Assembly (NCBI GenBank): GCA_028286685.1
Contig: JAQBRA010000004.1
Span: 120,300 to 184,299, forward strand
Source: Candidatus Adlerbacteria bacterium
GTDB lineage: Bacteria; Patescibacteriota; Minisyncoccia; Phycocordibacterales; SBAW01
Reading direction: 5' to 3'
DNA length: 64,000 nucleotides
The translations under genes and the position numbers were made by a program. Below, piece after piece: positions 2,589 to 54,919 of this stretch (position 1 is the stretch's first letter; every line of letters starts with the position of its first letter). Below the pieces are notes generated by a model that worked only from the letters and a program-made list of their open reading frames with translations, was not told the origin of the DNA and ran no database searches.

Positions 2589-2940
2589 TTGATGCTTCCG
2601 CACTGATAGTATTTTCAATAAACGGCAGCTGTGCTTGCTGCTCATGCCCCAGGTTCTGCATAATCCACAGCGTTCCTCCCACCAGTACCGCCGCAATAAA
2701 TACCGCAAAGCACAGCGCCATAACATTCCACCGCGGCTTTTCCTCATCGCCCACATGCAAAAAGAAATACAGCTGCACCAAAAGCTGGGTAAGCGCAAAG
2801 ATAACCAGTACCCAGGGCAGCTGGACATGCATTGAAGGACTGTGCTCTCCGGTTGTATGCAGCCACACGAACGCCGCAGGCACCAAAGTTAAGACCAGTG
2901 AGAGTGCAAATCCTATTATGTAGTGGGTTAGGGCGCGCAT
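2581..2940 (-). CDS. cyoD: Cytochrome o ubiquinol oxidase subunit IV
   Basis: 119 aa with 3 TM helices, positioned between cyoC and cyoE. Confidence 0.8.
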   Translation of the reverse strand: MRALTHYIIGFALSLVLTLVPAAFVWLHTTGEHSPSMHVQLPWVLVIFALTQLLVQLYFFLHVGDEEKPRWNVMALCFAVFIAAVLVGGTLWIMQNLGHEQQAQLPFIENTISAEASND

Positions 2941-3509
2941 TAGAGTGCTCCGAGCATATACACGATAGTAAAGATGAATATCCAGATGACGTCGAGGAAG
3001 TGCCAGAACAGCGCCAGGCAGGTCAGTTTGCGCAGCACGCCCTCAGTGAGGCCCTTAAAGGCGATGTGCGCCATAAGCACTACCATCCACAAGGACCCCA
3101 AGGCCACATGGAGCCCGTGCGTGCCCAACAGCGTAAAGAATGCGGAAAGGAACGCGCTCTTGTCGGGCCCTTGGCCCTCGCCAATGAGCGCAGCAAACTC
3201 ATGGACCTCCATCCCCAAGAAGCCAAGGCCCAAAGCCAGAGTTATAAGGAGCGCAGAAAGCGCCAGAGCGCGCTTGCCATGGCGCGCCGCCAAAAGCGCC
3301 AGGCCGATAGTAAAACTCGAGGCAAGCAGCAGCACCGACTCTACTGCTACAAACGGAATATCGACAATGTCTCCTATCCCGTAACCGCCAAATACCTGGC
3401 CCTGCAGCACTGCGTAGGTGGCAAAGAGCCCGGCAAACAGCACCGCATCGCTCATGAGATAGGCCCAGAAGCCGAAGGATACTTTGTCTGTAGTGTTGTG
3501 GTTGCTCAT
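2940..3509 (-). CDS. cyoC: Cytochrome o ubiquinol oxidase subunit III
   Basis: N-terminus [35 protein letters not shown] is typical of CyoC. Confidence 0.85.
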
Positions 3510-5419
3510 ACGGTTATTTTTTCCTCGATGTTCGTCTCAAACGACCGGGCAATAAGGCACGCGACGATCGCCGCTAGAGCAAGCGCCGCGAGCCACCAGA
3601 TGTGCCACACGGCCGCAAAGCCGAGCGCCAGGGCACATAGCGAAATAAGTACCCCCACAATAGTCTGCGTCGGCATTTCTATCTCGCCATGCGCCGGGCC
3701 TACCTCCATGCCGCCACCGTCCTCTTTATAGTTCCAGAACGCGTCGCGGCTATATATGTGCGGAATTGCGGCAAAGTTGTGCGCCGGAGGCGGCGAGGAC
3801 ACCGACCACTCCAGCGTGCGGCCGCCCCACGGGTCGTTGCCCGCCGGATTCTGCTTGCGGTCGCGGATGCTTACAAACAGCTGCAGGGCCTGCAGGAATA
3901 TTCCTGCGGCAATAATGCACAGCCCCACGGCCGCCACGATAAACAGCGGCTGCCACGAGGGATCGACCACATTAAGCCGGCGCGTGGCGCCCATGAGCCC
4001 CAGAGCATACAGCGGTACGAATGCGGTTAGGAATCCTATCAGCCAGCACCAGAACGCGTACTTGCCCAGGCGCTCGTTGAGCCTGAAGCCGAAGAGCTTG
4101 GGGAACCAGTAGGCAAAACCCGCAAAGAATCCGAACAGCACGCCGCCAATGATCATGTTGTGGAAGTGCGCCACCAAAAACAGCGAGTTGTGCACTTGAA
4201 AGTCGATGCCCGGAATAGACATCAAGACCCCGCTCATTCCACCGAGAATAAAGGTCGAGAGAAAGCCCATAAACCACAGCATCGGGGTCTCGAAGGTGAT
4301 GCGGCCGCGGAACATCGTAAAGAGCCAGTTGAACACCTTAACACCCGTCGGGATAGCAATGACCATGGTCATAATGCCGAAGAACGCGTTGACGTTGGCT
4401 GATGCGCCCATGGTAAAGAAGTGGTGCACCCATACCAAGAACGACAAGACCGCGATGCACATGGTCGCCACCACCATCGAGGTATAGCCAAAGAGCCTTT
4501 TGCGCGAGAATACCGGGACAATTTCGGAAAAGATGCCGAACGCCGGAAGTATCAGTATGTAGACCTCCGGGTGGCCCCACGCCCATATCAGGTTGACGTA
4601 CATCATGGCATTGCCGCCCAGCTCGGTCGTAAAGAAGTGCATGCCCAAGGTGCGATCTAGGCCCAAGAGCGCCAGAGTAACGGTGAGTATAGGGAAAGCA
4701 AAGACCACGAGGATCATCGAGGCCAGCGTGGTCCAGGCAAATATCGGCATGCGCATCATGGTCATGCCCGGCGCGCGCATTTTTATGATGGTCGCTATAA
4801 AGTTGATGCCGGCCAAAAGGGTGCCCACGCCCGCAATTTGCAGCGCCCATATGTAGTAGTCGACCCCCACCCCGGGGCTGTAGGCCAATTCCGAGAGCGG
4901 AGGGTATGCCAGCCAGCCGGTCGCGGCAAACTCCCCCACTACCAAAGAGAGGTTAATAAGCACCGCGCCCGCGACCGTAAGCCAGAACGAGAGCGAGTTA
5001 AGAAAGGGGTATGCCACGTCGCGCGCACCAATAAGTAGAGGGGTCGCCAGGTTTATAAGCGCAAACATAAACGGCATCGCCACAAAAAAGATCATGATGA
5101 CCCCGTGCGCGGTAAATATCTGGGCGTAATGGTCGGGGCTTAGGTAGCCCTCCGAGCCGGGCACCGCTATGGCCTGCTGCACGCGCATCATGGCAGCATC
5201 AACCGCTCCACGCAAAAGCATTACGCCCGCCAAAATAAAGTACATGACCGCGATCTTCTTGTGGTCTACGGTGGTCAGCCACTCGCGGTAAAACCACCCC
5301 CACAAACGGAAGTAGGTTAAAAGTGCCAGGGCACCCAATGCGCCGCCCACAATCATGAGCTGCGGGACCGTCTCAATGGGCCCGTGGAGGAATGCGCTTA
5401 AGGTAAGTTTTCCAAACAT
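3506..5419 (-). CDS. cyoB: Cytochrome o ubiquinol oxidase subunit I (heme-copper oxidase)
   Basis: 637 aa with N-terminus MFGKLTL...; carries heme-copper oxidase subunit I His ligands and the WFFGHPEVY-like motif WAWGHPEVY. Confidence 0.9.
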
Positions 5420-5421
5420 AG

Positions 5422-6225
5422 TTAGTGGGAGTGCCCCGTCGGATTGTGCGCGTCCATAAACTGCATAAGGACCGAATCAAACAAGCCGGGCGCTATGGCC
5501 GCATAAAACGTCTGTGGGACGCTAGAGCTCGGTTCTACCAATTCCTTATACTTCTCCCACGAGAGTGTCTCCGGAGAGGCCTTGATGCGGCCCACCCAGG
5601 CGTCAAACTCTTCGGGCGTTACGGCCCAAGCGGTAAACTTCATTGTAGCAAAGCCCTCGCCGCTGTAGTTGGCCGAGGCGCCCGCGTACGCGCCCGGCTC
5701 GGTGGCCATCAGATTAAGCGCGGTTACCATGCCAGTCATGGCGTATATCTGCCCGCCCAGCTGCGGTATCCAAAACGAGTTCATTGGCGCATCGGACGTA
5801 ATTCTAAACTCCACCGGCCTGTTTACCGGCATGTGCAGGTAGTTAACGGTCGCTATCCCCTGCTCTGGGTATATAAAGAGCCACTTCCAGTCCAGGGCCA
5901 CTACCTGGATTATCAGCGGGTCGCCGCCGGCCAGGGGTTTGGGCGGATGCAGCTCGTGCGTGCTGCCCCACGTAAGCGCGCCCAAGACCAGCACCACTTC
6001 TAAAGGGATAACCCACCACACCAGCTCCTCCATGCGGCCATGCTCCCAGTTGGGGCTGTATTTGGCTTTTTTGTTTGAGGCGCGGTACTTGTAGGCAAAG
6101 AAAAACAGCAGGAAGTAGACCGGGATGGCGACAATGAGCATGAAGCCCAGCGCCTGGAACATGAGGCCGCGCTCGGCGAGCGCTATGACGCCCTTGGGGT
6201 CTAGGACGGGGAACAACTCAAGCAT
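5422..6225 (-). CDS. cyoA: Cytochrome o ubiquinol oxidase subunit II
   Basis: 267 aa with two N-terminal TM helices and a cupredoxin-like C-terminus lacking the CuA ligands; first gene of the cyoABCDE block. Confidence 0.85.
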
Positions 6226-6312
6226 TCAGATATTGTAGCGCGGAAAGAGAAAAGGCCCCGCCACACTGAAGTGGCTAAGGGACCTTTGTTTACGCTACAG
6301 ATTACAGTTGAA

Positions 6313-6672: not shown

Positions 6673-6834
6673 TGCAAATTAACTACTGAAATTAGTATAT
6701 AATACTATATATTATATGTCAAGTATAGCTGGGTGTACGGAACAAACTAGCACGGCTAATAAACCACTCGCACGGAGACTAGAACAAAGTCTCTCGCAAG
6801 AGCAGCTGAAATGCGCCTAAAAATCTATGGAAAG

Positions 6835-9516: not shown

Positions 9517-9592
9517 TGGTGGACCCTACCGGGATCGAACCGGTCACCTCCTCATTGCAAATGAGGCGCTCTACCAGATGAGCTAAGGGCCC
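9517..9592 (-). tRNA. tRNA-Ala (anticodon TGC) with encoded CCA
   Basis: Minus-sense GGGCCCTTAGCTCATCTGGTAGAGCGCCTCATTTGCAATGAGGAGGTGACCGGTTCGATCCCGGTAGGGTCCACCA. Has the G3:U70 identity pair, anticodon loop TT-TGC-AA and T-loop GGTTCGATCC. Confidence 0.9.
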
Positions 9593-23276: not shown

Positions 23277-26200
23277 TTAATTGATGACCGCAACAGGCTT
23301 CGGCGCGTTAAGCTCGGCGCAGGTGATCTGGTTTATCTTCCACTGGGTGAGCTTGTATACCCAGCCGGTAGGCTCGGAGAGACCCCAAGGAGCGAGCACT
23401 TCGTCTGCGTACTGGGACTGGAATTTCTTGACGACGGCGTCGGTCTCAACTCCAAAGAGGCCGGTTACCGCAACGGTCGTGTTCATGTGTGCGCCTAGGA
23501 AGGTCTGGAGAAGCTTTACCTCCTCCGTGTCGTTCTTGCCGCCCATGCGCATGAAGGTGTAGAGCAACGGGGTGCTGCACACAGGGCCGATCTCGGCGCC
23601 GAGAACTTCTCCTACGCGGCTCGTATTGCGGTTGCGGCTGCCATTGCTGCGATTGGTTGAAGTAGTTACAACAACCGGTGCTTCCTCTGCTGCAATATAG
23701 GTGCGCGAGAGCGTGCTGGCAGCGGCGTTCTGGTTGCCGCTAAGATCGGCAAACTTATGCTCCTGAACAGTCGCGGAGGAAACGCTGCCGGTCGGCGTCA
23801 TGATGAAGGTCCACACGGTTGGGCTTACGGCCGTAAAGTCGCTGATGATAGCGCTACTTGCATCGATGTCGCTCATCTCAAAACCGGTTACCGGCTCTGA
23901 AAAGGTGGCGGTAACGAAGGTCGAGGATTCGCTAGTCGGATTGGAGCTGGTGGCGCTCAAGACTACGGTCGGCACCGTGGTGTCCTGAGACTCAGGCGTT
24001 GCGTCGTACGTTACGGTGCACGGCGCGGTCCATTCGGACTTGTTGCCGTTAGCATCAACCGCACGGATCTTGATCGTGTAGAGGCCCTCCCCTTCGGTAA
24101 AGGCTCCCGTGCGAGACGTAACGGTCAGGCCAGTTTCAATGTACGGATTGAGATCGTTATGCAATCCCTGGGAGGTAACCCAGTACTCGTAGGTAACGGT
24201 GCCGGAGTCGTCGGTTGAGGCGCCCCAGTTGACCGTAACGGAGCTGCTGTTGGTAGTTGCGCCACAGGCAAGAGACGGCTCAGTGAGCGTAAGGGCGCCC
24301 GGCATGGTCGGATTTTCGTCTCCCGAGGAGGGGGTTGGCGAGGTCGTGAAGGAAAGGACGGAGCCCGGGTACCACGTACCGGCTACCTGTGCCCATGCGA
24401 CAAAGTGGTACTGCGTACTAGCGGCAAGGCCGGACAGTGCATGGCTGAATGATCCGCCAGCTGGTGCGGCGCCGACGCCGGTCGGATGGTATGACCATCC
24501 GGACGGGAGCTGGCCGCTCGGGTCAACTGCGGCAGTCATAGGACCTGCGGAGGAAGCGCCCCACCAAAAGGAAGTGTTGCTTGCGGCGATAGGGCCATTG
24601 GCTCCATTAAGTGTTGCGCCATTGATGCCTACCGGATTGGCGGCATTAGTAGTAGCCGACGGGACCGCGGTCTCACCGGTGATACTGAAGGACAGTACCG
24701 AGCCCGGGTACCAGACGCCGCCTACCTGCGACCAGGCGACAAAGTAGTAGGTCGTGCCGGATGCAAGACCCGAGAGCGAGTGGCTAAACGTTGCGGCGGG
24801 TGCCGCTGCACCAAGGCCAGTCGGATGGTACGCCCATCCAGACGGGAGTTGGCCGCTCGGATCTGCCGCCTGGGTAAATGGGCCGGCATTTGTCGTACCC
24901 CACCAGAACGAGGTGTTCCCGGCAGCAACCGAGTTATTGGTTGCATTGAGAGTCGCATCGGTGGCAGTAACGCCGCTTGCTGCATTAGTGGTTACGCCGG
25001 GAGTTGCCGGAGGAGGAGTAGGGGCTGTGTCGAGCTTGACGCTCCAGATCGTGCTCCAGGCGCTCCAGTTGCCCGCTACATCGCGCGCGCGGACCTGCCA
25101 GTACCATACGCCATCCGGTGCACCCGTGGAATGGATTGTAGGATCGAGCAGAGTGCCCGAGGTCCATATCCCGCCGCCTACCAATATATCGTTGGCATCA
25201 TGCGCCGAATCGAGCGATGAGTGGAACTCGTACGTAATGTTGCCCGGCTGGTCGTCGGTAGACTCCTGCCAAGTAAAGTCGAACTCGTTGGTGTTAAGCG
25301 TAGTGCCGTTTGCAGGGCTCGTAAGAACGGGAACGGACGGAGGCACCGTATCTGCGCTGTGGTAGGTTATCGGGCACGTATTGCTCCACGCCGAGGCATT
25401 GAACGATCCGTCGTCATTAAGATTGTTATTGTTGGCATCGTTAAATGCCATTACCTCGGTCAGGAAGGTGCCGCCGTCTTCGGCAGCGCCAAAGCTGAAC
25501 CAATTGCCCATGCTCGGGCCGGTAAAGACCATATTGCTGATGACATTCCAATTCGCGCCATTGTCGGCGCTGACGCGGCGGATGTATTTGATATTGGATC
25601 CTGCGACCGTAGTCCAGCGCTGGTTGAGCGAGTTGCGGCTTTCAAGGATAGAAACGCCGGAAGGGTTGCAAGCGAGACTTATCGGGTCGGACTCAAGGTT
25701 GGCTGCCTCACCCTCTACGTTCCATCCCAAGAGCGTAGGCTTCTGGATCTGAGTCGGCTCGAAGTTAAAGGTCTTGGTGGTAAGCGTGGAGCCGTTAAGG
25801 GCACCAAAGACGAACTTGTCGATGTTCTCGGTGTAGCCGTCTGCGTACGGCTCGCCTACGCGAACACCGAGGAACGAATCGCCATCGAGTATCTCAGCAT
25901 CGGGGTAATCAACGAGGATCTCATTCCAAGTCTTGAGGGTAGTGCCGGAGACGCCTGCCTCTGCCTGCGCGGTAGTCGGCCAGGTTGCGCCCGAGTAAGA
26001 CCACTTGGCGGAGCCGTTCTGTATTGCATCCCACTCATTCCAAGAGTTCTGCACGACTGCCCCATTGTTGGCCGGGACGAAGACCAGGCGGCGCTGCCAG
26101 ATATTAGAGCCGTCGAAGCTGACGTTGAAGTTGAGGTAGCCCGAGCGATTAGCGTCGCCGCCGTTACCTGCCGAAGGATTGTACGTGCTGTACTTGAGCG

Positions 26201-28007
26201 TCTTTATGGCCGAGAGCTGCACGCCGCCGAAGGCGTAGGTAGCGAGGTTGCGGCGCTCGGTTCCGGTAACGGAAACCTGTACGCTGCCGTCGCCCAAGCT
26301 GCCGGCAGGGCCGGAAACGAACGAGCCGAGCGCGTTGTTGATGGTGTCGTTCTCGTCGTTGTAGAAGAACCACTTGCCGGAATTATTATCGGCGGCGAGG
26401 AAGCGGTCAGTCTGCGTTTCGAGATCGGCAGCCCTAACTACAATCGTGCTGTTCTGGTTATTGATCGATGGTTGCGAAGTGGAAATATCGACATTATCGA
26501 TAAGGAAGCCCTTGCCCGAGGTTGCCGGAGCAGCCGTGCCTGCAGTGCGGAAGAGGAGCGAGTCTACCGTGCGGGTCGGATTATGCTCGTCGTTGCGGAA
26601 GTAATTCTCCCAGCTGGTGCCCGTGTGCTTAAGAGCGCCGTCGATGTAGATCTTGACGACATCGTTGTTGGTGCCATCGACAAAGTCCATGACGAACTTG
26701 ATCGTGTGGGCTGCGCGGGTGAGCGTAGCAACCGGCACGTCGACAAACGTCGCATCGTCGAAGAATACGTGGATGCCGTCTGTCTGATCCTCGAAGCGCA
26801 GGTAGCTCATGCGCGCGCCGTCGCCGCGGTCCGGAGAGACCGACATGACAAGGCCCGGCTGGTAAACGGCAGTTGCGACGCCGAGGTCAAACTGCGCCTC
26901 AAAGTGCGTTTTGCGGGTGCCGCCGGACTTGCCGCCGTTCTCAGCGCTCGTCTCTCCTGCCTCGTTGGCTACGGAGTACGAGTAGGTCTGGTCTGCAAAC
27001 GAGCCCGAGGTAACTGCATTGGAGATGCGGAGCGTCTTGCAGCCAAAGTCGGTGTAGCCGTAAGTATTAGTAACAACCGCCTGGTCGAACGGACCAGTGG
27101 ATGCCCAGCCGTGCTGGCCGTTAACCGAGCCCAAGGAGTAGCCGTCAAAAGTGGTGTCATCGGAAAGGTCGCACGCAGGCACCGGTACCGGCAAGAGCAC
27201 GGAGGCCACCTGCTTGCTTATGGTGCCATTGTTGCCTACGGAAACCTGCTGGTTGCTGTAGAGGGCACCAGTTATATTGTTATTGTTTCCTATTGCAATG
27301 CCGAAGGCATCAGAGACATTACTCTTGGTGGAATACACTGTGCCGCTCCAAGCAACATTAGCACCGGTGGTAAAGGTGCCTTTTGTTTCGAGGTAGAAGT
27401 CCTGTGCAGTGCCACCAATAAGCGAGAGAGTGTTGTTGTCACCAACTACGACATTGTCGTTTGCAAAGATAACTACATCGCCACTGGTTACCGTGAGATT
27501 GATATGGACATTTGCGTGAGTAGTGATGGTATTGAAGACATACGTACCGGCTGAAAGGTTGAGGGTAGTATTGTCGTTGAGGAGAAGATTGCGGTAGGTG
27601 CCCGGAGCCAGCGTGAGGGTGCCGTTTACGGATACGGTGCGGTCGCCGGAAACAGAAGAGCTTGCAGTAAAGGAGTTGGCGGCAGGAAGAGTGACGGCAG
27701 GAGCATTTTGCACAAGGCCGCCGGTTGTGGTATTTCCGCCGACCGTGGTGGTCAGGCCAGAGCGGACGCCAGAGAAGTGTCCGTTGGCACCCAGATCAAT
27801 CTTGCTATTGCCACCAGTAAGACCGCTGGATACATGCGCATTGTTGCCCAAGGCTGTATTCGCATTTGCCGCACTGCCGGCGCCAAACACTGCAAAATCA
27901 CTAAACGTCTCTCCTGCTGCAAAAGCAGTGAGCGAAAGAGCGAGAGCGATACTAATTGCTGCAAAAAACGCAACGCCCGCGCCCAACCATCCTTTATAAG
28001 TAGTCAT
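23277..28007 (-). CDS. Giant secreted cell-surface protein (1576 aa): signal peptide, beta-rich adhesin-like regions, tandem FN3-like repeats, C-terminal peptidoglycan-binding domain
   Basis: N-terminal signal peptide, long Thr/Ser/Gly/Asn-rich beta segments, two FN3-like repeats of about 113 aa, and a C-terminal PG_binding_1-like segment (LLQTFLGAH...GLFGVETDAVVKKFQ). Confidence 0.8.
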   Translation of the reverse strand: MTTYKGWLGAGVAFFAAISIALALSLTAFAAGETFSDFAVFGAGSAANANTALGNNAHVSSGLTGGNSKIDLGANGHFSGVRSGLTTTVGGNTTTGGLVQNAPAVTLPAANSFTASSSVSGDRTVSVNGTLTLAPGTYRNLLLNDNTTLNLSAGTYVFNTITTHANVHINLTVTSGDVVIFANDNVVVGDNNTLSLIGGTAQDFYLETKGTFTTGANVAWSGTVYSTKSNVSDAFGIAIGNNNNITGALYSNQQVSVGNNGTISKQVASVLLPVPVPACDLSDDTTFDGYSLGSVNGQHGWASTGPFDQAVVTNTYGYTDFGCKTLRISNAVTSGSFADQTYSYSVANEAGETSAENGGKSGGTRKTHFEAQFDLGVATAVYQPGLVMSVSPDRGDGARMSYLRFEDQTDGIHVFFDDATFVDVPVATLTRAAHTIKFVMDFVDGTNNDVVKIYIDGALKHTGTSWENYFRNDEHNPTRTVDSLLFRTAGTAAPATSGKGFLIDNVDISTSQPSINNQNSTIVVRAADLETQTDRFLAADNNSGKWFFYNDENDTINNALGSFVSGPAGSLGDGSVQVSVTGTERRNLATYAFGGVQLSAIKTLKYSTYNPSAGNGGDANRSGYLNFNVSFDGSNIWQRRLVFVPANNGAVVQNSWNEWDAIQNGSAKWSYSGATWPTTAQAEAGVSGTTLKTWNEILVDYPDAEILDGDSFLGVRVGEPYADGYTENIDKFVFGALNGSTLTTKTFNFEPTQIQKPTLLGWNVEGEAANLESDPISLACNPSGVSILESRNSLNQRWTTVAGSNIKYIRRVSADNGANWNVISNMVFTGPSMGNWFSFGAAEDGGTFLTEVMAFNDANNNNLNDDGSFNASAWSNTCPITYHSADTVPPSVPVLTSPANGTTLNTNEFDFTWQESTDDQPGNITYEFHSSLDSAHDANDILVGGGIWTSGTLLDPTIHSTGAPDGVWYWQVRARDVAGNWSAWSTIWSVKLDTAPTPPPATPGVTTNAASGVTATDATLNATNNSVAAGNTSFWWGTTNAGPFTQAADPSGQLPSGWAYHPTGLGAAAPAATFSHSLSGLASGTTYYFVAWSQVGGVWYPGSVLSFSITGETAVPSATTNAANPVGINGATLNGANGPIAASNTSFWWGASSAGPMTAAVDPSGQLPSGWSYHPTGVGAAPAGGSFSHALSGLAASTQYHFVAWAQVAGTWYPGSVLSFTTSPTPSSGDENPTMPGALTLTEPSLACGATTNSSSVTVNWGASTDDSGTVTYEYWVTSQGLHNDLNPYIETGLTVTSRTGAFTEGEGLYTIKIRAVDANGNKSEWTAPCTVTYDATPESQDTTVPTVVLSATSSNPTSESSTFVTATFSEPVTGFEMSDIDASSAIISDFTAVSPTVWTFIMTPTGSVSSATVQEHKFADLSGNQNAAASTLSRTYIAAEEAPVVVTTSTNRSNGSRNRNTSRVGEVLGAEIGPVCSTPLLYTFMRMGGKNDTEEVKLLQTFLGAHMNTTVAVTGLFGVETDAVVKKFQSQYADEVLAPWGLSEPTGWVYKLTQWKINQITCAELNAPKPVAVIN
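24361..25040. repeat. Intragenic tandem repeat (2 units, period about 339 nt) encoding duplicated FN3-like modules
   Basis: Units begin GAGCCCGGGTACCA at 24361 and 24700; the antisense ORFs share PVGWY.HPDGSWPLGS. Confidence 0.75.
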
Positions 28008-47790: not shown

Positions 47791-47798
47791 GGTAAGTA

Positions 47799-47825
47799 GC
47801 GGGTATCCGGGACAATGCTAGAACC
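47799..47825. repeat. Array repeat copy 0 (degenerate, about 21 of 28 matches): GCGGGTATCCGGGACAATGCTAGAACC
   Basis: Aligns to the consensus GCTGGGTGTATGGGACGATGTTGGAACC; lies 9 nt upstream of the DUF2200 ATG. Confidence 0.6.
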
Positions 47826-48368: not shown

Positions 48369-48398
48369 CCGCTGGGTGTATGGAACGATGTTGGAACC
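48369..48398. repeat. Array repeat copy 1: CGCTGGGTGTATGGAACGATGTTGGAACC
   Basis: One mismatch to the consensus. Confidence 0.9.
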
Positions 48399-48408
48399 TC
48401 CTTAAGTT

Positions 48409-48837
48409 CTATTTATTTGCATTGAACTCCACAATCCACTCAATACCGTATTTATCTCTAAACATACCGGCATATGTTCCCCAAGGACTTTCCCCGATTG
48501 CCCCTTCTACTTGTCCTCCAATAGAAAGACCATTAAATATTTTTTCCGCTTCTTCTTTGTTGTCTGCATTTAGATGGATTTTACTCCTATTTTCATTTTC
48601 ACTTACTTTTCCCATAACTTCAGGAACATCGTTTCCTATTAGCATATTTCCGCCGCCAATAGGCAAAGTAATCAGCATGATTTTGTTCTCCTCTATATCT
48701 CTAACCGGGAATTCAGGACTCGCAAGATCTTTGAAACGAATCACCTTTGTAAAATCTCCGCCAAAAACAGATTTATAAAAAGTAAACGCTTCTTCGGCAT
48801 TACCATTAAAATTAATCCAAGGGTTTATTGCTGTCAT
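48409..48837 (-). CDS. Cassette gene: VOC/PhnB-like glyoxalase-superfamily protein (paralogue class of 42599..43111)
   Basis: MTAINPWINFNGNAEEAFTFYKSVFGG. The -10 box TATAAT (48844-48849) lies 6 nt upstream of the ATG, suggesting a leaderless transcript. Confidence 0.7.
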   Translation of the reverse strand: MTAINPWINFNGNAEEAFTFYKSVFGGDFTKVIRFKDLASPEFPVRDIEENKIMLITLPIGGGNMLIGNDVPEVMGKVSENENRSKIHLNADNKEEAEKIFNGLSIGGQVEGAIGESPWGTYAGMFRDKYGIEWIVEFNANK

Positions 48838-48880
48838 AGTGAAATTATATACTTGAGACCTTGGTCACACAACATACTCT

Positions 48881-48970
48881 GAATTTGCTGGGTGCACGGG
48901 CGACCTGATTTTTAACGAACAGAGCGAGTATAAAAATGGAAGTACTCTTGTGGTAACGATGTTGGAACCA
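48881..48970. repeat. Array repeat copy 2, split at its centre: left half GAATTTGCTGGGTGCACGGG, then a 54-nt unrelated insert, then right half ACGATGTTGGAACC
   Basis: The two halves map exactly to positions 1-14 and 15-28 of the consensus. Confidence 0.8.
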
Positions 48971-49037
48971 TTGTAGCAAAAGAAGAAGCGGCTACCCCAT
49001 AGGATAGCCGCCTGCTGAAATGACCGGGGTCAGAGCC

Positions 49038-49619
49038 TTAGCCAGTAATAACCCGACAAATGCGGCCGACAAATCCGAGCTTCTTGCCTCGTCTTTGAAA
49101 CTGGAGGAGATCAGTGCGTGGAATGTCGTAAGCATATCTTGCCCGAGCCATGGCAATTTCCTGGTCTGGATAGAGGCTAACCCAGGTGCGACGCTGAATT
49201 TTCTCGGTTTCTTCGAATACGGCCTTGCCGTCTTGGACTACCCCAACAGGAAGAAAGTCCGTCTCGAACAAGGTGATCTCACGGCGAGTAGTCTCGGAAC
49301 CGATATCTTCGTCGAAGTAGAGCTTGCCGAATCTCATCGACGTATCCCACTCGTGGAATCGGTCGACACATGTCGCCTCTAGACCCGGAAGCAGGCTGTC
49401 CATGAATGCCTGCAACTCAGGACCGGTATAAATACCCTGATTGGGCGCGACAATGAAGTCGACGGTGTGAGTCCAAAAGCCATCGCGGTGTGGAAAATGA
49501 TTCAGCTCGTTGACCGCGACGATCTGGATATTCGTGTTGCCTTGGAGAGCAGCACGGACGGAAGCAAGCTTAGACATGCAAGAAGCGTCCTTTGGCGCTG
49601 GTTGAACAACTATACGCAA
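49038..49619 (-). CDS. Cassette gene: hypothetical protein (193 aa; TTG start at 49619 or ATG MSKLASV at 49580)
   Basis: Flanked by repeat copies 2 and 3, with a terminator-like hairpin GCGGCTACCCCATAGGATAGCCGC downstream. Confidence 0.55.
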   Translation of the reverse strand: MRIVVQPAPKDASCMSKLASVRAALQGNTNIQIVAVNELNHFPHRDGFWTHTVDFIVAPNQGIYTGPELQAFMDSLLPGLEATCVDRFHEWDTSMRFGKLYFDEDIGSETTRREITLFETDFLPVGVVQDGKAVFEETEKIQRRTWVSLYPDQEIAMARARYAYDIPRTDLLQFQRRGKKLGFVGRICRVITG

Positions 49620-49646
49620 ATTACAACAAATTATCTAAAAAGTCGA

Positions 49647-49673
49647 GCTGGGTGTTTGGGACGATGTTGGAAT
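49647..49673. repeat. Array repeat copy 3: GCTGGGTGTTTGGGACGATGTTGGAATC
   Basis: Two mismatches to the consensus. Confidence 0.9.
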
Positions 49674-49675
49674 CT

Positions 49676-50074
49676 TTATTGAGTAGGAATGCCCCTTTTA
49701 GCCAAGTCCTCTATGGACTCAAATTCCAGATAATTCTGGGTCAATTCCTCTCCTGCTTGTATATCCCGAGCCGCTACCAAGTAAGCATCTGCGTGAGCCG
49801 AATCCTGCGTAACCGTTGCCTCGTAGGAGTGATTGATGAAATGCGATACATCAAAGTCGACATGCCACTTTTGGCTAGGCTCATCAAAGAATCCCCACCA
49901 CTGAACTTCATGCTTCTCTTTCTCATCCAAAGAGTCGAACTGCTCTTGAGTAAGGTTCACGTCGAGCAAGGGACTCGCGGTATAAATGAGCGTGCCTTTA
50001 GAAATATTTTGGTTGGCAAAAAGTCCGACACCATGATGCTCTGATTTATCGAGATTGTACTTGATATGAATCAT
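49676..50074 (-). CDS. Cassette gene: small SET-domain protein (132 aa)
   Basis: GVGLFANQNISKGTLIY, NHSYEAT (NHSCxPN-like) and GEELTQNY (post-SET-like) motifs. Confidence 0.65.
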   Translation of the reverse strand: MIHIKYNLDKSEHHGVGLFANQNISKGTLIYTASPLLDVNLTQEQFDSLDEKEKHEVQWWGFFDEPSQKWHVDFDVSHFINHSYEATVTQDSAHADAYLVAARDIQAGEELTQNYLEFESIEDLAKRGIPTQ

Positions 50075-50100
50075 GCCGATACAGTATCACAAAAAGACTG

Positions 50101-50128
50101 GCTGGGTGTATGGGACGATGTTGGAACC
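50101..50128. repeat. Array repeat copy 4 (perfect consensus) with an 80-nt conserved extension carrying terminator hairpin GCCGCCC...GGGCGGC
   Basis: The extension is homologous to the one after copy 9 at 53646-53710. Confidence 0.9.
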
Positions 50129-50209
50129 ATTCTGACACATGAATATGGAAAAGAAAATGCCGCCCAAGTATAGCCGGGGCGGCTCGGTATCGTATAATTT
50201 TTAGGTCGA

Positions 50210-50617
50210 TCAGTTCACTCTACGACTTGTCTGGTGCAAGTCATAGAATCGATAAAGAGCCGGACATGGAAACGGCGCGGACGAAGTACCCCAGACCTGC
50301 TCCCCTTTTTCCTCCATCTCGCGCAGGACTTCCGCCCCGCGATCGAGATCGTTGGTGTTTAAGAGAAAATTGATATGGTATTCCCCCGCTTCGCTCCCAA
50401 TTTGGGTTCGAAACAGCACCCCCGAGCGTGCGCCGACCATATGGGTATCCCATGCCGTCTCAATAATTCCGTCGCAGACATCACTGACAATATGCATACG
50501 TTCCCATTTCTTTAGGTAGAGATCACATGCAGCCATCTTAAGCGCCGCTCGCACTTGGTCGGTAATCATACCTGGACCCTTTTCGACCATGAGGCAAGTC
50601 CAAGAGTCGTTGGACAT
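50210..50617 (-). CDS. Cassette gene: hypothetical protein, possibly SRPBCC/Bet v1-like (135 aa)
   Basis: ATG MSNDSWTCLMVEKGP at 50617; fold call is weak. Confidence 0.5.
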   Translation of the reverse strand: MSNDSWTCLMVEKGPGMITDQVRAALKMAACDLYLKKWERMHIVSDVCDGIIETAWDTHMVGARSGVLFRTQIGSEAGEYHINFLLNTNDLDRGAEVLREMEEKGEQVWGTSSAPFPCPALYRFYDLHQTSRRVN

Positions 50618-50685
50618 CGTCAGTCTCCCGATTTGTTCCTGATGCAGCTGAAAAGATAATACAACAAAGTATATCAAAAGCAATA

Positions 50686-50713
50686 GCTGGGTGTATGGGA
50701 CGATGTTGGAACC
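50686..50713. repeat. Array repeat copy 5 (perfect consensus)
   Basis: GCTGGGTGTATGGGACGATGTTGGAACC. Confidence 0.9.
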
Positions 50714-50760
50714 TTATTAACAGAAATCGCCTAACAAAGTCAGGCGACTCTGCTAGGCGG

Positions 50761-51039
50761 TTAAATGATTGGGACTTGGCCCTCGTCAGGACATTCCGGG
50801 ACGAGCTTTTCGTCCAAGAGATAAAGTTTACCGCTAAGCCAGTCGCCGCTGGCATAGCTTTCATACATCCGGTCGTATTCGGACCGAACAGTAACATCGC
50901 CTGCGATTTTCCAGACCCCGTTTTCTGGAATCACAACGAGCCGCTTTCCGGCAGGCGTATATGGTGGAGTTTCGCTCAGATGACCCTGAACAAGAACCCC
51001 TTTTGCCTCGACGGCTTTCACTCCGTAATAAGTGCCCAC
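50761..51039 (-). CDS. Cassette gene: hypothetical protein (92 aa, GTG start with SD GGAGA)
   Basis: SD CAGGAGAAAGAA immediately precedes GTG 51039. Confidence 0.5.
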   Translation of the reverse strand: MGTYYGVKAVEAKGVLVQGHLSETPPYTPAGKRLVVIPENGVWKIAGDVTVRSEYDRMYESYASGDWLSGKLYLLDEKLVPECPDEGQVPII

Positions 51040-51108
51040 TTCTTTCTCCTGATGTTCTAGTGCGATTAACTTTTATAAAAATACATGAATTACAGAACAT
51101 GTCAATAG

Positions 51109-51135
51109 TTTGGTGTGTGGGACGATGTTGGAACC
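51109..51135. repeat. Array repeat copy 6: TTTGGTGTGTGGGACGATGTTGGAACC
   Basis: Left arm diverged; the shared tail CTATTTTGA overlaps the stop of the next gene. Confidence 0.85.
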
Positions 51136-51401
51136 TATTTTGATTTTAAAACAACAATGTAAGTCCCTATCCATGAACCCAAGGCCAAAGGAAGAATGTA
51201 CAAGTAATTTTGCACATAACTTAGAACTCCAACCGCAATAAGAAAGTGCATTAGTGCGCCTACCGTAGCAGACTTAAAAGGTTGCTTCTCAGCTATTGCG
51301 AGTGTGTAATAAGCATACATACCATCTACCAAAATGTAGGCGAAGAAAACAACGAGAGCGGAAAGCGGATTAAAGGTCTGCCAAAGATCAAAAAAGTTCA
51401 T
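51135..51401 (-). CDS. Cassette gene: small 3-TM membrane protein (88 aa)
   Basis: Repeat copy 7 ends 6 nt upstream of its ATG; probably co-transcribed with 51435..51845. Confidence 0.55.
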   Translation of the reverse strand: MNFFDLWQTFNPLSALVVFFAYILVDGMYAYYTLAIAEKQPFKSATVGALMHFLIAVGVLSYVQNYLYILPLALGSWIGTYIVVLKSK

Positions 51402-51407
51402 AAATTT

Positions 51408-51435
51408 GCTGGGTGTATGGGACGATGTTGGAACC
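51408..51435. repeat. Array repeat copy 7 (perfect consensus)
   Basis: The TAG stop of the upstream cassette overlaps the repeat end (GGAACCTATTTTGA). Confidence 0.9.
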
Positions 51436-51845
51436 TATTTTGAGGCTAGATAGGCCTCTATCTTGGCCACGTCTATCAAATCCTTCTCTCTAGCATAAAC
51501 CTCCTTAACCAGTTTTACATCTCGCAAGCCTGCAAACGGCACTCCGTCAATTAGTTCGGAATTCTTTTTCAGCCGCTCAAAAGTCATTTCTGCAATGCCA
51601 CCAACATTTGGATACAGCTCAATAGTCCCCTCGTCATTGGCTACACCCGCCTCCTCTGTCGGGATAATTCTCGGATGATGGTGCCAACCCTCTTTGTTGC
51701 GATACTCATCTAGAAGTTTGGGAGAAACAACAATATCGATATCATTTGTTTCTTTTAACCCGCGCGCTGCTAACGCCGCACCTCCAATTACTACGTACTC
51801 GTCAACTGGAAAGTTATGCTTTTTTATTTCTGAAAAGATATCCAT
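51435..51845 (-). CDS. Cassette gene: minimal nucleotidyltransferase (pol-beta superfamily) fold protein
   Basis: VVIGGAALAARGLKETNDIDIVV matches the G[SG]-x9-13-[DE]h[DE]h MNT signature. Confidence 0.6.
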   Translation of the reverse strand: MDIFSEIKKHNFPVDEYVVIGGAALAARGLKETNDIDIVVSPKLLDEYRNKEGWHHHPRIIPTEEAGVANDEGTIELYPNVGGIAEMTFERLKKNSELIDGVPFAGLRDVKLVKEVYAREKDLIDVAKIEAYLASK

Positions 51846-51864
51846 AATTTACTTAACTTAATTA

Positions 51865-51892
51865 GCTGGGTGTATGGGACGATGTTGGAACC
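51865..51892. repeat. Array repeat copy 8 (perfect consensus)
   Basis: GCTGGGTGTATGGGACGATGTTGGAACC. Confidence 0.9.
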
Positions 51893-51949
51893 TTTTTAGT
51901 TAATGGCACCTGACGCTAAAATCCTTTTCAGTACAGCCAATAATAAAAG

Positions 51950-53542
51950 CTATTTTATTGAAGCAATGAATGCCTTTGTTTTTGGTCCGAAGTATCCCAA
52001 AGAAGGAGTGATTCCATTTGTTTTTTGAAACTTAGCAAGTGCTGCTCGAGTAAGCGCGCCAAAGAAATCCGTTTCATTTCCTGCAGACCCAATTCCTGAA
52101 AGTGCCACGGGAGATTCGTGTCCGTTCAAAAACTCTTGGAGCGCTTTCACGTCGTCTCCCGAGAAGCCTGTTTTAAGATCACGCGTAAAAGAAACGGGCT
52201 GCACATCTCCAGATTGAAATACTTGCGGAAAGTTTTTCATCAAGTCTTCTGCTTTTTGAGTTTCACTCATTGCAATAAGATTTTTTACTCGACTCTGAAC
52301 TGAACTTCCATGGCTCGATCGGTGGTGTGGTTCAGGAGTTGGGGTTGCCGTAGGAGTGACCGTAAGAGTTGTCGGTGGAGGAAGAGGCTGATCCGATGTT
52401 AAGGAAAAGAGTACACCATTATTGTTGACTCCACCAAACTCAGTAACGCCATAAATCACATCGCTACTACTTCTGAATAATGTAGCATCAGCATTTTTAC
52501 CATCGGTACCATCAAAGTTATGCAGTACGGTATAGGTGCCAGAGTCAGCTGGATCAAAGGAGAAGACGACACCTTTGCTATTAGTGCCTCCCGAAAATGT
52601 GATTCCATAAAATACACCACCAATCTCAAGAAGAGAACCTTGTGAACTGTATCCCTCAGCAGTATCAAAGTTATAAAGCACGGTATACGTGCCCGAGCCA
52701 GCAGGATCATAGGAGAAGATGACGCCTTTGTTATTGGTCCCTCCTGCGCCTGTCATTCCATAAAATTTTCCACCGTATGCAACAAGAGAATTACCTCCCA
52801 CGCCATTCCCTTCAGTACCGTTAAAATTATGCAGCACGGTATACGTGCCGGAACCTGCAGGATCGTAAGAAAAGATAGTGCCTTGGTTAGATAATCCCCC
52901 AGTGCCTTCCCCATAAAAAACGCCATCCGACAGAATCATCGAACCATAATAAGGTCCCCCTCCTTCAGTACCATTAAAATTATGTAGCACAGTAAAGGTA
53001 CCCGAGCCAGCGGGATTGTAGGAATAGATGACACCGCGGCTATCAGGTCCTCCACTTAGAGTAGTTCCATACAGAACTCCATCCTTCTCTAGAAGAGCGC
53101 CTTGGGGAATTGCGCCATGGGTATCATCAAAGCTATGCAGCACCGTGAAAGTGCTTGAATCTGCAGGATCAATAGAATAGAGAACGCCTTTATTGTTTGT
53201 TCCTCCACCGTCCGTTACACCATAAAAAATACCATTGTATTCGAACAATGTTCCAGAAGGATTCCCTCCCTCAGTACCATTAAAATTATAAAGCACGGTG
53301 TAGGTGCCAGAGCCTGCGGGGTCATAGGAGTAGATGACGCCTTTGCTATTTGCTCCCCCCGCATATCCTACTCCATAAATAATTCCATCTTTTTCAATTA
53401 AAAAATCATACGGGTCTGTACCGGTTAGGGAACTAAAATCATACAGTTTTAAATAGGCAAAGGCAGCGAAGGCGGTATGCGCAGATACTAAAAAGGTGCT
53501 TACGAAGATGAAAAACGAGACTATATAAAAAGATAACTTCAT
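51950..53542 (-). CDS. Cassette gene: secreted protein with Gloeo_Verruco-type beta-propeller repeats and a C-terminal peptidoglycan-binding domain
   Basis: Signal peptide; at least 9 repeats of G..YTVLHNFNGTEGG.P.G.L....G.FYG.T..GG..N.GVIFSYDPA; C-terminal PG_binding_1-like (LQEFLNGH...GYFGPKTKAFI). Confidence 0.75.
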   Translation of the reverse strand: MKLSFYIVSFFIFVSTFLVSAHTAFAAFAYLKLYDFSSLTGTDPYDFLIEKDGIIYGVGYAGGANSKGVIYSYDPAGSGTYTVLYNFNGTEGGNPSGTLFEYNGIFYGVTDGGGTNNKGVLYSIDPADSSTFTVLHSFDDTHGAIPQGALLEKDGVLYGTTLSGGPDSRGVIYSYNPAGSGTFTVLHNFNGTEGGGPYYGSMILSDGVFYGEGTGGLSNQGTIFSYDPAGSGTYTVLHNFNGTEGNGVGGNSLVAYGGKFYGMTGAGGTNNKGVIFSYDPAGSGTYTVLYNFDTAEGYSSQGSLLEIGGVFYGITFSGGTNSKGVVFSFDPADSGTYTVLHNFDGTDGKNADATLFRSSSDVIYGVTEFGGVNNNGVLFSLTSDQPLPPPTTLTVTPTATPTPEPHHRSSHGSSVQSRVKNLIAMSETQKAEDLMKNFPQVFQSGDVQPVSFTRDLKTGFSGDDVKALQEFLNGHESPVALSGIGSAGNETDFFGALTRAALAKFQKTNGITPSLGYFGPKTKAFIASIK

Positions 53543-53617
53543 ACCAAAATTGAATCAACCTAAATCCTTCAGATGAAGTATATATCACTTTTCGAAGCGA
53601 TTTTACGCTTAAAATTT

Positions 53618-53645
53618 GCTGGGTGTATGGGACGATGTTGGAACC
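53618..53645. repeat. Array repeat copy 9 (perfect consensus) with a conserved 65-nt extension
   Basis: The extension ATTTTGACACACCAATTTAGAAAAGAAAATGCCGCCC... parallels the one after copy 4. Confidence 0.9.
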
Positions 53646-53716
53646 ATTTTGACACACCAATTTAGAAAAGAAAATGCCGCCCTATAGTCCGGAGCGACTT
53701 GCCGCTAGTTTAAAAA

Positions 53717-54040
53717 TTAAATGTGGAAAGAAAGGGCAAGAATAGCAGATTCGCCATTTTCTGTTCGCCGCCAATTCACAAAGGCAGTACTCTCAACTAC
53801 TTTTGAATAAAGTTCTGGGTATTTCTCTTTTAAATCTTTAGCGTTATCTAATTGTAACGTTACGATTTCTCCTCCTTTTACTTGTACCTTGTTCATCTCA
53901 GTATCTAGGCTAGACATGCAGTCAATCCAAGCATTCATATTTCTTCCGTAGTAGTCAGGGAAGCCAAAAACTTCGTAAAACGTATCGTGCAAAGTCTCTT
54001 CGCTGACAATTTTGCCGGCATCAATTATTACTGTTTTCAT
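53717..54040 (-). CDS. Cassette gene: barstar-like (barnase-inhibitor family) immunity protein
   Basis: MKTVIIDAGKI...LHDTFYEVFGFPDYYGRNMNAWIDCM. A perfect TATAAT (54048-54053) lies 1 nt before an upstream in-frame ATG, so the mRNA probably starts at MKTV (leaderless). The longer ORF N-terminus is just the repeat read in frame. Confidence 0.65.
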   Translation of the reverse strand: MKTVIIDAGKIVSEETLHDTFYEVFGFPDYYGRNMNAWIDCMSSLDTEMNKVQVKGGEIVTLQLDNAKDLKEKYPELYSKVVESTAFVNWRRTENGESAILALSFHI

Positions 54041-54089
54041 GTCCATGATTATACTACGTGTCTCGGTCGCGATAATCTCGAGTGAATTT

Positions 54090-54117
54090 GCTGGGTGTAT
54101 GGGACGATGTTGGAACC
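54090..54117. repeat. Array repeat copy 10 (perfect consensus) with extension carrying hairpin GCGGCTCC-TAATTTG-GGGAGCCGC
   Basis: The extension is homologous to the one after copy 2 (48971-49015). In minus sense the hairpin plus TTCTTCTTTT forms a terminator. Confidence 0.9.
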
Positions 54118-54559: not shown

Positions 54560-54783
54560 TACATGCTCCTCTTTGTTGAAGTCCAAAAATCACATTACAA
54601 CAAAGTATTTGAAAAGTCACTAGCGGGGAAACATGGTTCGGTCAGGCGTTCAAAAGTTGTCGTCACAACTTTTGCCGCACGACCCTGCCTCGCTCCCGCC
54701 TGTGCTCGCGCGGGTCCCGCACTACTTCGAGTACTTCCATTTTCTAAAGCGGAGTACCCCTAAGAAAATTAGGTCGCTCCGGC

Positions 54784-54830
54784 TTTCGAATCCATGCCGC
54801 GAAGCATCCCATGCTTCGCTTCTCCCAGCT
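54784..54830 (+). other. Inverted partial copy of the tRNA-Gln 3' half (TTCGAATCCATG / TCTCCCAGCT) interrupted by a 24-nt perfect palindrome
   Basis: 12 plus 10 nt are identical to the tRNA-Gln T-arm and acceptor 3' strand. The copy is in opposite orientation and sits 18 nt from the tRNA 3' end. Confidence 0.7.
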
Positions 54831-54848
54831 TCATTACTACGTATTTAG

Positions 54849-54919
54849 CTGGGAGACATGGATTCGAACCATGATTCACGGCTTCAAAGGCCGCTGTCCT
54901 ACCATTAGACGATCTCCCA
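54849..54919 (-). tRNA. tRNA-Gln (anticodon TTG), no encoded CCA
   Basis: Minus-sense TGGGAGATCGTCTAATGGTAGGACAGCGGCCTTTGAAGCCGTGAATCATGGTTCGAATCCATGTCTCCCAG. Has a 7-bp acceptor stem, anticodon loop CT-TTG-AA and T-loop GGTTCGAATCC. Confidence 0.85.

Follow-up and report, generated by a model that had tools for sequence, protein, structure and literature searches.

A tRNA-seeded cassette array in a Candidatus Adlerbacteria genome with one 28-nt repeat interrupted by a recurrent hairpin module

The stretch of 64,000 nucleotides from a Candidatus Adlerbacteria genome analyzed here (the window) carries a series of small gene cassettes separated by a 28-nt repeat, GCTGGGTGTATGGGACGATGTTGGAACC (the 28-mer). 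Nine intact direct copies were found between 48371 and 54117, with a spacing of 300–1753 nt, and one further copy, at 48881-48969, was cut in two by a short insert. The question raised by this locus was whether the break marks the point at which a recombinase exchanges strands, as a first-pass annotation of this DNA had proposed. No 28-mer match was obtained in 100 shuffles of the sequence; hence, none was expected by chance. The gene-sense strand corresponds to the minus strand of the window, and the positions of the repeat, which reads GGTTCCAACATCGTCCCAnACnnCCAGC / GGTTCCAACATCGTCCCATACACCCAGC in this sense, were numbered on it.

The analysis pointed to a different explanation. The split copy is probably an ordinary attachment-site repeat carrying a hairpin module of 55 nt, and the repeat itself is likely to be the element-side, attP-type half-site of a family of large serine recombinases that extends across the Candidate Phyla Radiation (CPR), with the 3' end of tRNA-Gln as their chromosomal target. 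The insertion point reports the insertion habit of the module and not the site of recombination: a break within a repeat is no evidence of the recombination point, and the one described here shows the habits of a second, smaller element.

The split copy and the hairpin module

The two parts of the split repeat, located by sequence, and the two modules of the window, one of them in an element devoid of open reading frames (ORFs), were as follows:

48887..48899, minus strand: proximal part of the split repeat (crossover side), gene-sense positions 16-28, CCGTGCACCCAGC
48900..48954, plus strand: hairpin module copy 1, 55 nt (GCGACCTG...CTTGTGGT), the insert (nhmmer E = 5e-11 against the module family)
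48955..48969, minus strand: distal part of the split repeat, gene-sense positions 1-15, GGTTCCAACATCGTT
54720..54777, minus strand: hairpin module copy 2, 58 nt, within the ORF-less element and inverted with respect to copy 1 (E = 3e-13)

On the plus strand, 48881-48969 consists of GAATTTGCTGGGTGCACGGG (ending at 48900), an insert and ACGATGTTGGAACC (starting at 48956), and a direct reading of the sequence gave an insert of 55 nt, 48901-48955, one nucleotide longer than the 54 nt originally described. The flanks of the split copy match on both sides those of the intact copy 54090-54117, and the pairwise alignment of these two copies showed one clean 55-nt insertion. The interrupted copy was thus present at this place as claimed. 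The break had also been placed exactly at the midpoint of the repeat, and this did not hold: a shared G makes the break point ambiguous, with the midpoint location depending on its assignment, and the module boundaries seen in other genomes (GCGACC...GTGGT) divide the repeat off-centre into 13 + 15 nt, between gene-sense positions 15 and 16. The segment 48887-48899 fits the consensus CCA.AC..CCAGC apart from A-to-G changes at positions 18 and 20, which are otherwise conserved. The C-to-T change at position 15 is also present in the neighbouring copy 48371-48398. An origin of the split by chance or artefact was ruled out by the repeat statistics and by module-split sites in independent assemblies (loci L212 and L016).

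The insert, regarded at first as unrelated sequence, belongs to a recurrent family. A module profile search covering 1.5 Mb of sequence yielded eight copies of 54–58 nt in about five genomes, with the arrangement GCGACCT-hairpin-GGAAGTRCYCTTGTGGT. Two of them are in the window, one each in L016 (Saccharibacteria), L151 and L212, and three are diverged (two in L217 and one in L219); the L219 copy and one of the L217 copies are a single region recovered from two samples, which leaves seven independent placements. Compensatory changes were observed in 3 of the 15 predicted hairpin pairs. The two copies of the window are collinear, inverted and 5.8 kb apart, with 15/15 and 15/17 nt matches. Copy 1 is antisense to the cassette genes and its inner stem has decayed, with a fold z of 0.3 compared with -2 to -3.5 in the other copies.

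The surroundings of the module were then compared between loci. In L212, a 28-mer is interrupted between positions 15 and 16 (GGTTCTAACTTCGTC, module, CCACACACCCAGC), antisense to the array as in the window. In L016, the module lies within a 28-mer at the non-central position 18/19 and in the sense orientation, and in L151, as at 54720-54777 of the window, it was found inside the ORF-less element. Both dispersed copies and pairs of filled and empty sites were observed: the homologue of the ORF-less element in L002 has an empty site in a hairpin loop, filled at the corresponding point in L151, and the intact copy at 54090 is the empty counterpart of the split one. Since five of the eight copies occupy sites of the array system, and these sites account for about 1% of the searched sequence, the insertion of the module is not random. 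Furthermore, in L213-L215, the 28-mer that follows a cassette homologous to 49038-49577 is split between positions 15 and 16 by a different sequence of 23 nt; that this insert derives from the module could not be shown.

Repetitive extragenic palindromic (REP) sequences and miniature inverted-repeat transposable elements (MITEs) are small interspersed hairpin elements, and the module resembles them in its length of about 55 nt, its multiple copies, its hairpin, its occurrence in both orientations and its intergenic location. It differs from them in its very low copy number and in its association with a single system, whose attachment-type sites contain five of the eight copies. The module ends (GCGACC... 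and ...GTGGT) are not inverted repeats, as would be usual in such elements, and a target-site duplication amounts to at most one ambiguous G. No candidate transposase for the module turned up in the loci studied, where no systematic search for one was made, and the viral contigs gave no match to it.

In L217, two diverged modules (6188-6245 and 6699-6756) lie within a larger duplicated unit, outside any 28-mer, and a few kb from the genes for a diversity-generating-retroelement reverse transcriptase and bAvd.

The 28-mer as a recombination site

A scan of species-representative genomes detected the 28-mer in 17 metagenome-assembled genomes (MAGs) of the CPR (Paceibacterota, Kaiser-, Nomura- and Adlerbacteria, and Saccharibacteria), often with several copies within 8 kb. 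A metagenome scan added 120 loci, 11 of which were removed as chance matches in a phage methylase gene. After this removal, 126 CPR loci with a total of 275 copies were left, the median distance between copies being 555 nt. A tRNA-Gln gene in the same orientation stood at the array head in nine of the first 18 loci examined, and in the tRNA-headed loci the first cassette starts within a few bases of the tRNA-Gln 3' end (...TCTCCCAGC). Two closely related loci, L004 and L006, are 91% identical downstream of the array and differ in cassette content up to the edge of the 28-mer. In the window, the features that define the array were the following:

48371..54117, minus strand: nine intact 28-mers, with plus-strand starts at 48371, 49647, 50101, 50686, 51108, 51408, 51865, 53618 and 54090
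49038..49577, minus strand: cassette gene that precedes the split site in gene sense; its protein is identical to JWL87_487 from a MAG of Candidatus Adlerbacteria, which places the organism in the CPR
48409..48837, minus strand: cassette gene downstream of the split site, glyoxalase / 3-dmu-9_3-mt family (Pfam)
47798..47825, minus strand: degenerate 28-mer with a 19/28 match, past the last intact copy
54623..54847, minus strand: ORF-less element between the tRNA and the first cassette (RNA fold z = -6.1)
54848..54919, minus strand: tRNA-Gln(UUG), the array head, whose 3' end GGTTCGAATCCATGTCTCCCAGC is the proposed attB-type half-site

The genes dnaX/holB are located upstream of this tRNA-Gln(UUG). 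Each interval of the array carries a single small minus-strand gene, and the G+C content of the array is 0.41–0.50, compared with 0.57–0.60 in the flanks. That the 28-mer is a recombination site rather than a regulatory box, as initially suggested, was supported by these data: variable cassettes of mixed G+C content are delimited by it, the tRNA-Gln 3' end is where the arrays begin in many CPR genomes, and in some genomes the 28-mer lies at the far end of elements encoding a large serine recombinase. A promoter or regulatory box was rejected, as no sigma-70 or extracytoplasmic function (ECF) spacing fits and the site is found at the 3' end of the cassette regardless of gene orientation (L220, and 16 antisense cassettes with a promoter-like motif of their own). 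A tRNA-like or other known RNA was also rejected, since the repeat has no match in Rfam, and neither have the module and the ORF-less element.

The proposed layout of two 11-nt arms around a 6-nt core proved arbitrary. The 11-nt arms are complementary at 4 of 11 positions, and the best dyad anywhere in the 28-mer reaches 6/14, at the level of shuffled sequences (mean 5.9). Conservation extends from -4 to +30 and then ends, with no partner arm on either side. The suggested check of whether positions 12-17 behave differently from the arms was carried out in the alignment: they are 86–100% conserved in 83 copies outside the search patterns, as is the rest of the site, and the 27 copies from loci chosen by protein sequence gave the same result. 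The variable gene-sense positions are 1, 19, 22 and 23. Because dyad symmetry is absent and the six central bases are conserved like the remainder, the 28-mer is not an 11-6-11 site of the dif/loxP type that breaks at its centre. The features of an integron attC site were not observed either: there is no dyad, GTTGGAA departs from GTTRRRY at its last base, and no complementary partner was found within the space before the next gene. The architecture of the array is integron-like; no IntI was found, and the enzyme at the head, where present, is a serine recombinase.

The 23-mer at the 3' end of tRNA-Gln aligned with the 28-mer (GGTTCGATCCCTAGTCTCCCAGC with GGTTCCAACATCGTCCCAGACTGCCAGC) through a single gap of 5–6 nt, and 0 of 2000 shuffles scored as well; on this alignment, the 28-mer copies the 3' end of tRNA-Gln with an extension of 5 bp. 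In the model of the Listeria integrase (LI), the motif bound by the zinc-ribbon domain (ZD) lies at half-site positions 16-24 in attP and 5 bp nearer to the centre in attB (PMC3783163). When the centre was set at positions 22-23, the conserved block AAAGGTTCC fell at positions 16-24 of the element-side half-site, with the GGTTC of the tRNA 5 bp further in. The 5-bp relation matches the known shift between attP and attB half-sites of serine integrases. Over hundreds of copies, conservation at positions 16-21 does not fall below 87%, and position 20 consistently has A where the tRNA has T; these positions therefore represent an element-side recognition sequence and not a displaced tRNA end.

Positions 22-23 are the least conserved of the site, and the segment CCAGC, common to the tRNA and the 28-mer, lies to the right of position 23. 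In pairs of copies sharing only the downstream cassette, positions 22-23 agreed in 11 of 17 cases compared with 0.31 for random pairs (p = 0.004), and in pairs sharing only the upstream cassette the agreement was at the random level. These pairs were BLAST-based, with the methylase loci removed and 13 and 17 of them usable, and a strict ungapped version left too few. Homology between cassettes of different contexts starts just past CCAGC. Given that positions 22-23 are variable and move with the downstream cassette, and that homology starts after CCAGC, the crossover would most likely lie within gene-sense positions 22-30, at or just past the dinucleotide 22-23 and at least 7 bases from the split, a placement based on small numbers and on analogy.

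Several further observations were made on the sites themselves. In 16 loci (e.g., L003 7250-7330 and L108 350-430, in oriented coordinates), antisense cassettes have a conserved motif in common, TCTAGACAGAACCTACCATATGTTGCAGAAA. It spans about 30 nt, is located between the 28-mer and the start codon of the antisense gene, and is probably a promoter with an extended -10 element. An upstream motif, TCTAGACAGAACC..., was considered as the missing inverted arm and rejected, since it occurs in 16 copies only, beside antisense start codons, and is probably a promoter. In L220 (7900-8620), a homologue of the 49038-49577 cassette is located, antisense, between two variant 28-mers (GGTTCCCACGTCGTACCACAGCCCCAGC) amid housekeeping genes, and hence a second sequence type of the site and single-cassette insertions exist.

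A scan of viral contigs with the core of the repeat gave 61 matches, about 35 of which share 21–22 nt with it; all 25 of the matches inspected fell in one phage gene family, apparently encoding DNA cytosine methyltransferases (judged from the YPCQ motif alone). In these contigs (L018-L078) and in the 11 metagenome loci, high-G+C phage genes share the 21–22 nt (GTCTGGGACGATGTTGGAACC) with the repeat inside the coding sequence. The matches were judged a coincidence within a coding region and not true repeats, and they constitute a trap for pattern searches.

The serine recombinase, the proposed mechanism and its rivals

Clustering of the ORFs around the repeats led to one recombinase family, with no other family of recombinases recurrent near the arrays. 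As its members contain the domains Resolvase, Recombinase and Zn_ribbon_recom, it is a family of large serine recombinases. In L171 and L079 (tRNA-Gln) and L189 (tRNA-Ser), the recombinase is encoded on the opposite strand, and the stop codon of its gene adjoins the tRNA 3' end or falls within it; in L177 it abuts a tRNA-3'-like fragment. The elements at these four loci measure 2–7 kb, carry a 28-mer at the far end and are followed by ordinary cassettes; those of L171 and L079 also encode a rolling-circle Rep (HUH) protein. The family is large, with more than 3,300 homologues at E ≤ 1e-30, and four of them (L223-L226) were chosen by protein sequence alone, the 28-mer playing no part in the choice. 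In L223 and L225, the recombinase gene overlaps tRNA-Gln(CUG), and in L224 it abuts a tRNA-Gln 3' fragment; these three loci contain 6, 14 and 7 copies of the 28-mer on the far side and in the correct orientation. The fourth locus, L226, was cut by the contig end. A junction, ...CAGC/A, is common to the recombinase side and to the 28-mers, and the right arms on the recombinase side share just a short coding-related motif.

Moreover, in L171 (1-130), L079 (40-160), and L223 and L225 (11420-11530), the recombinase reading frame crosses the junction into the antisense strand of the tRNA. The target therefore provides the last residues and the stop codon of the recombinase, which excision would alter.

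From these data, a mechanism can be proposed in which a serine recombinase acts on the 28-mer. Elements would integrate at the 3' end of tRNA-Gln and displace earlier arrivals outward, and the outcome would be an array of mostly one-gene cassettes, each with a terminal 28-mer. The tRNA-side site may stay usable after each integration, since one half-site only is conserved, and recombination between the tRNA and a 28-mer could strip cassettes from the head of the array. The array of the window would be acted on in trans or be inactive, because the window lacks a recombinase gene. In the split copy, the site would most likely be disabled, because the module places about five helical turns between the GGTTCC motif on the distal side and the CCCA.AC motif on the proximal side; the cassettes 49038-49577 and 48409-48837 would then be locked together. 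The lost inner stem of the module and the changed positions 18 and 20 fit a decaying, disabled site.

A number of results weigh against this explanation. No recombinase gene was found in the window (a Pfam scan of 40 ORFs and a tblastn search with the recombinase). No conservation was detected to the right of position 30 in 266 copies, with the methylase chance matches still included, and the sites lack the second, inverted half-site usual in serine-integrase sites. A search of the viral contigs with the recombinase profile for an episomal attP returned distant recombinases and no 28-mer. The test of co-segregation was small, with its 13 and 17 pairs, and three different sites (window, L212 and L213-L215) bear insertions exactly at 15/16, so that something could cleave there. 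The recombinase and the arrays could have been drawn to tRNA-Gln independently of each other, and the re-use of attL-like sites, which the building of an array would need, is not known for serine integrases.

The alternatives were weighed against the same evidence. The 28-mer as a complete tyrosine-recombinase core like those of dif, loxP and attI, with exchange in its central 6 bp and the insert as a minimal cassette or footprint, would account for a break within one base of the geometric centre and for the insertions at the same point in the window, L212 and L213-L215. It is nevertheless highly improbable, given that the repeat has neither a dyad above the level of shuffles nor a distinct centre, and that no tyrosine recombinase appeared in the scan of 40 window ORFs or in the ORF families that recur around the arrays. 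On either side of the insert there is a half-site, where an empty or minimal cassette would have whole ones. The module is itself a recurrent small element, found also at the non-central 18/19 of L016, in ORF-less elements and, in L217, outside 28-mers, so that both outcomes which the first-pass annotation had named as refuting its proposal were observed. Moreover, a crossover at positions 14-16 would demand a tRNA-Gln with a non-functional acceptor strand before integration. It is unlikely, to a lesser degree, that another enzyme (an unrecognised recombinase, or one of HUH type acting on the asymmetric 28-mer) builds the arrays and that the serine elements merely share tRNA-Gln with them, the split still being a module insertion. 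The one-sided conservation, unusual for serine integrases, would suit such an enzyme, as would the many arrays without a recombinase gene at the head, the window included, and the rolling-circle Rep (HUH) encoded by recombinase elements. However, the 5-bp expanded copy of the tRNA end is the relation specific to attP and attB of serine integrases, the ...CAGC/A junction is common to the recombinase side and the 28-mers, and no other recombinase family recurs near the arrays.

Somewhat less likely than the action of another enzyme, though not as remote as a tyrosine core, is that the module is a functional accessory, which would either bind a factor involved in directionality or regulation or act as a small structured RNA, and that the split sites are active. 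Both halves of the repeat can still be recognised at the split sites of the window, L212 and L016, the co-varying hairpin has conserved flanks that are single-stranded, and the concentration of the module in sites of the system (five of eight copies, seven independent placements, about 1% of the sequence) would be expected of an accessory. Such a role is hard to reconcile with its rarity (3 of about 300 repeat copies), with its occurrence in both orientations and at two positions, with the loss of the inner stem and of two conserved half-site bases in the window copy, and with the diverged L217 copies outside any site. Module insertion into an ordinary attachment-site repeat remained the explanation that best agreed with the evidence. 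A wider proposal built on it is more tentative: the system might be a CPR counterpart of the integron run by a serine recombinase, with the 3' end of tRNA-Gln as the fixed entry site, 28-mers as the cassette sites, and the type of each site determined by one half-site under 5-bp spacing rules; a single attP x attB reaction could then insert as well as excise one-gene cassettes at the head without a directionality factor, and the module of roughly 55 nt would be a site-specific element aimed at these sites beside a GAC/GTC step and would hold cassettes in place.

Cassettes, neighbouring elements and related systems

The array is a tRNA-seeded, cassette-like accretion array in the CPR, associated with large serine recombinases, with one site interrupted by the module. 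Its cargo, according to Pfam, includes a glyoxalase/3-dmu-9_3-mt protein, a SET-domain protein, a barstar and a protein with PG_binding and repeats, together with several proteins without a Pfam match; one further protein gave a weak nucleotidyltransferase-like match under the Pfam cutoff. An exact-sequence look-up of the glyoxalase cassette protein returned no record. Homologues of the 49038-49577 cassette are followed by a differently split 28-mer (L213-L215) or lie antisense between two variant 28-mers (L220). The degenerate 28-mer at 47798-47825 suggests older, decayed cassettes farther from the tRNA (DUF2975, DUF2200 and DUF1697 genes).

The ORF-less element next to the tRNA was also compared between loci. 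In its 5' part, which a hairpin interrupts, the element is antisense to the 3' end of the tRNA, and it terminates in a sequence that repeats the 3' end of the local tRNA-Gln in a form shortened by 5 nt. Homologues, each after a 28-mer, were found in L002 (3930-4096), L151, L138 (623-747) and L192 (1393-1517). The element is strongly structured, measures 150–225 nt, is conserved from Saccharibacteria to Adlerbacteria and always follows tRNA-Gln or a 28-mer; it could represent a new non-coding RNA or, alternatively, a cassette of the non-coding kind.

Among known systems, the sites of LI (A118-type) serine integrases are the closest at the level of the enzyme: a recombinase of the same architecture heads the arrays, and the distal motif is 5 bp outward on the element side (PMC3783163). 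In this comparison, made from sequence alone, they differ in that one half-site is conserved here, with no inverted partner, and in the long direct-repeat arrays, which demand that the tRNA-side site be re-used after each integration. Integrons likewise have cassettes of mixed composition, most of them with one gene and most, though not all, in the same orientation, with one site per cassette, a typical cargo (glyoxalase/bleomycin-resistance-like proteins, immunity proteins and unknowns) and, in some genomes, a divergent recombinase at the head. In contrast to the folded imperfect palindrome of integrons, the site described here is asymmetric and of 28–34 bp, the recombinase is a serine and not a tyrosine one, the array is anchored on a tRNA gene, and the cassettes seem to bear their own TATAAT-type promoters near the start codon.

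The location of the array recalls the Prochlorococcus tycheposons (bioRxiv 10.1101/2020.12.28.424599) and the accretion of integrative and conjugative elements (ICEs) and cis-mobilizable elements (CIMEs), which likewise have a tRNA 3' end as the seed, transient integrase-bearing elements beside the tRNA, older material distal to it and attachment-site remnants between units. As in tRNA-seeded accretion islands, the tRNA 3' end was abutted, remnants of the site were repeated and the integrase units were nearest to the tRNA. The repeats of tycheposons are partial tRNA copies, and 910 of their 937 integrases are tyrosine recombinases (bioRxiv 10.1101/2020.12.28.424599), unlike the present 5-bp-expanded paralogue of the tRNA end, strongly conserved across CPR classes, and its mostly single-gene units. 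The literature search found no description of CPR tRNA-Gln cassette arrays in the collection covered.

Composite islands of the staphylococcal cassette chromosome mec (SCCmec) type depend on Ccr large serine recombinases and integrate at the 3' end of rlmH. They share with the array a large serine recombinase, integration at the 3' end of a conserved gene, tandem elements with direct repeats and recombinase-less units; the differences are the target (a tRNA here, a protein gene there), the far smaller units, and the other lineage and recombinase family.

Genomes of the CPR (Patescibacteria) are very small, and few routes of gene exchange have been recognised in this group. If the explanation put forward here is true, a widespread cassette-gathering locus at tRNA-Gln would be run by a large serine recombinase family, and it would be a concrete place to seek flexible genes of the CPR. 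Serine integrases are widely applied in genome engineering, and the locus would also provide natural attP/attB pairs for a large group of them that is unexplored, as well as an example of recombination sites with one half-site conserved.

Additional observations were made on the window. The cassette at 51950-53542 encodes a secreted protein of 530 aa with six tandem repeats of 153 nt (51 aa) and a C-terminal peptidoglycan-binding domain. The 5' leaders of cassettes (48838-48880 and 54050-54089) present a TATAAT box a few bases before the start codon, a placement that suggests promoters borne by the cassettes and leaders that are very short or absent. Outside the array, a very large minus-strand ORF of 1576 aa is located at 23277-28007, and a haem-copper oxidase set (COX1, COX2 and COX3) with a UbiA-family prenyltransferase at 1884-6225, which is unusual for the mostly fermentative CPR group. 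A partial relative of the repeat (TTCCGTACACCCAGC, minus strand, 6728-6755), in which only the crossover-proximal half is conserved, was found at the edge of an island with a G+C content of 0.37–0.43 (about 6.7–9.5 kb) that adjoins tRNA-Ala (9517-9592) and encodes an AbiEii-like AAA ATPase. This region may be a second, older island of the same kind as the array.

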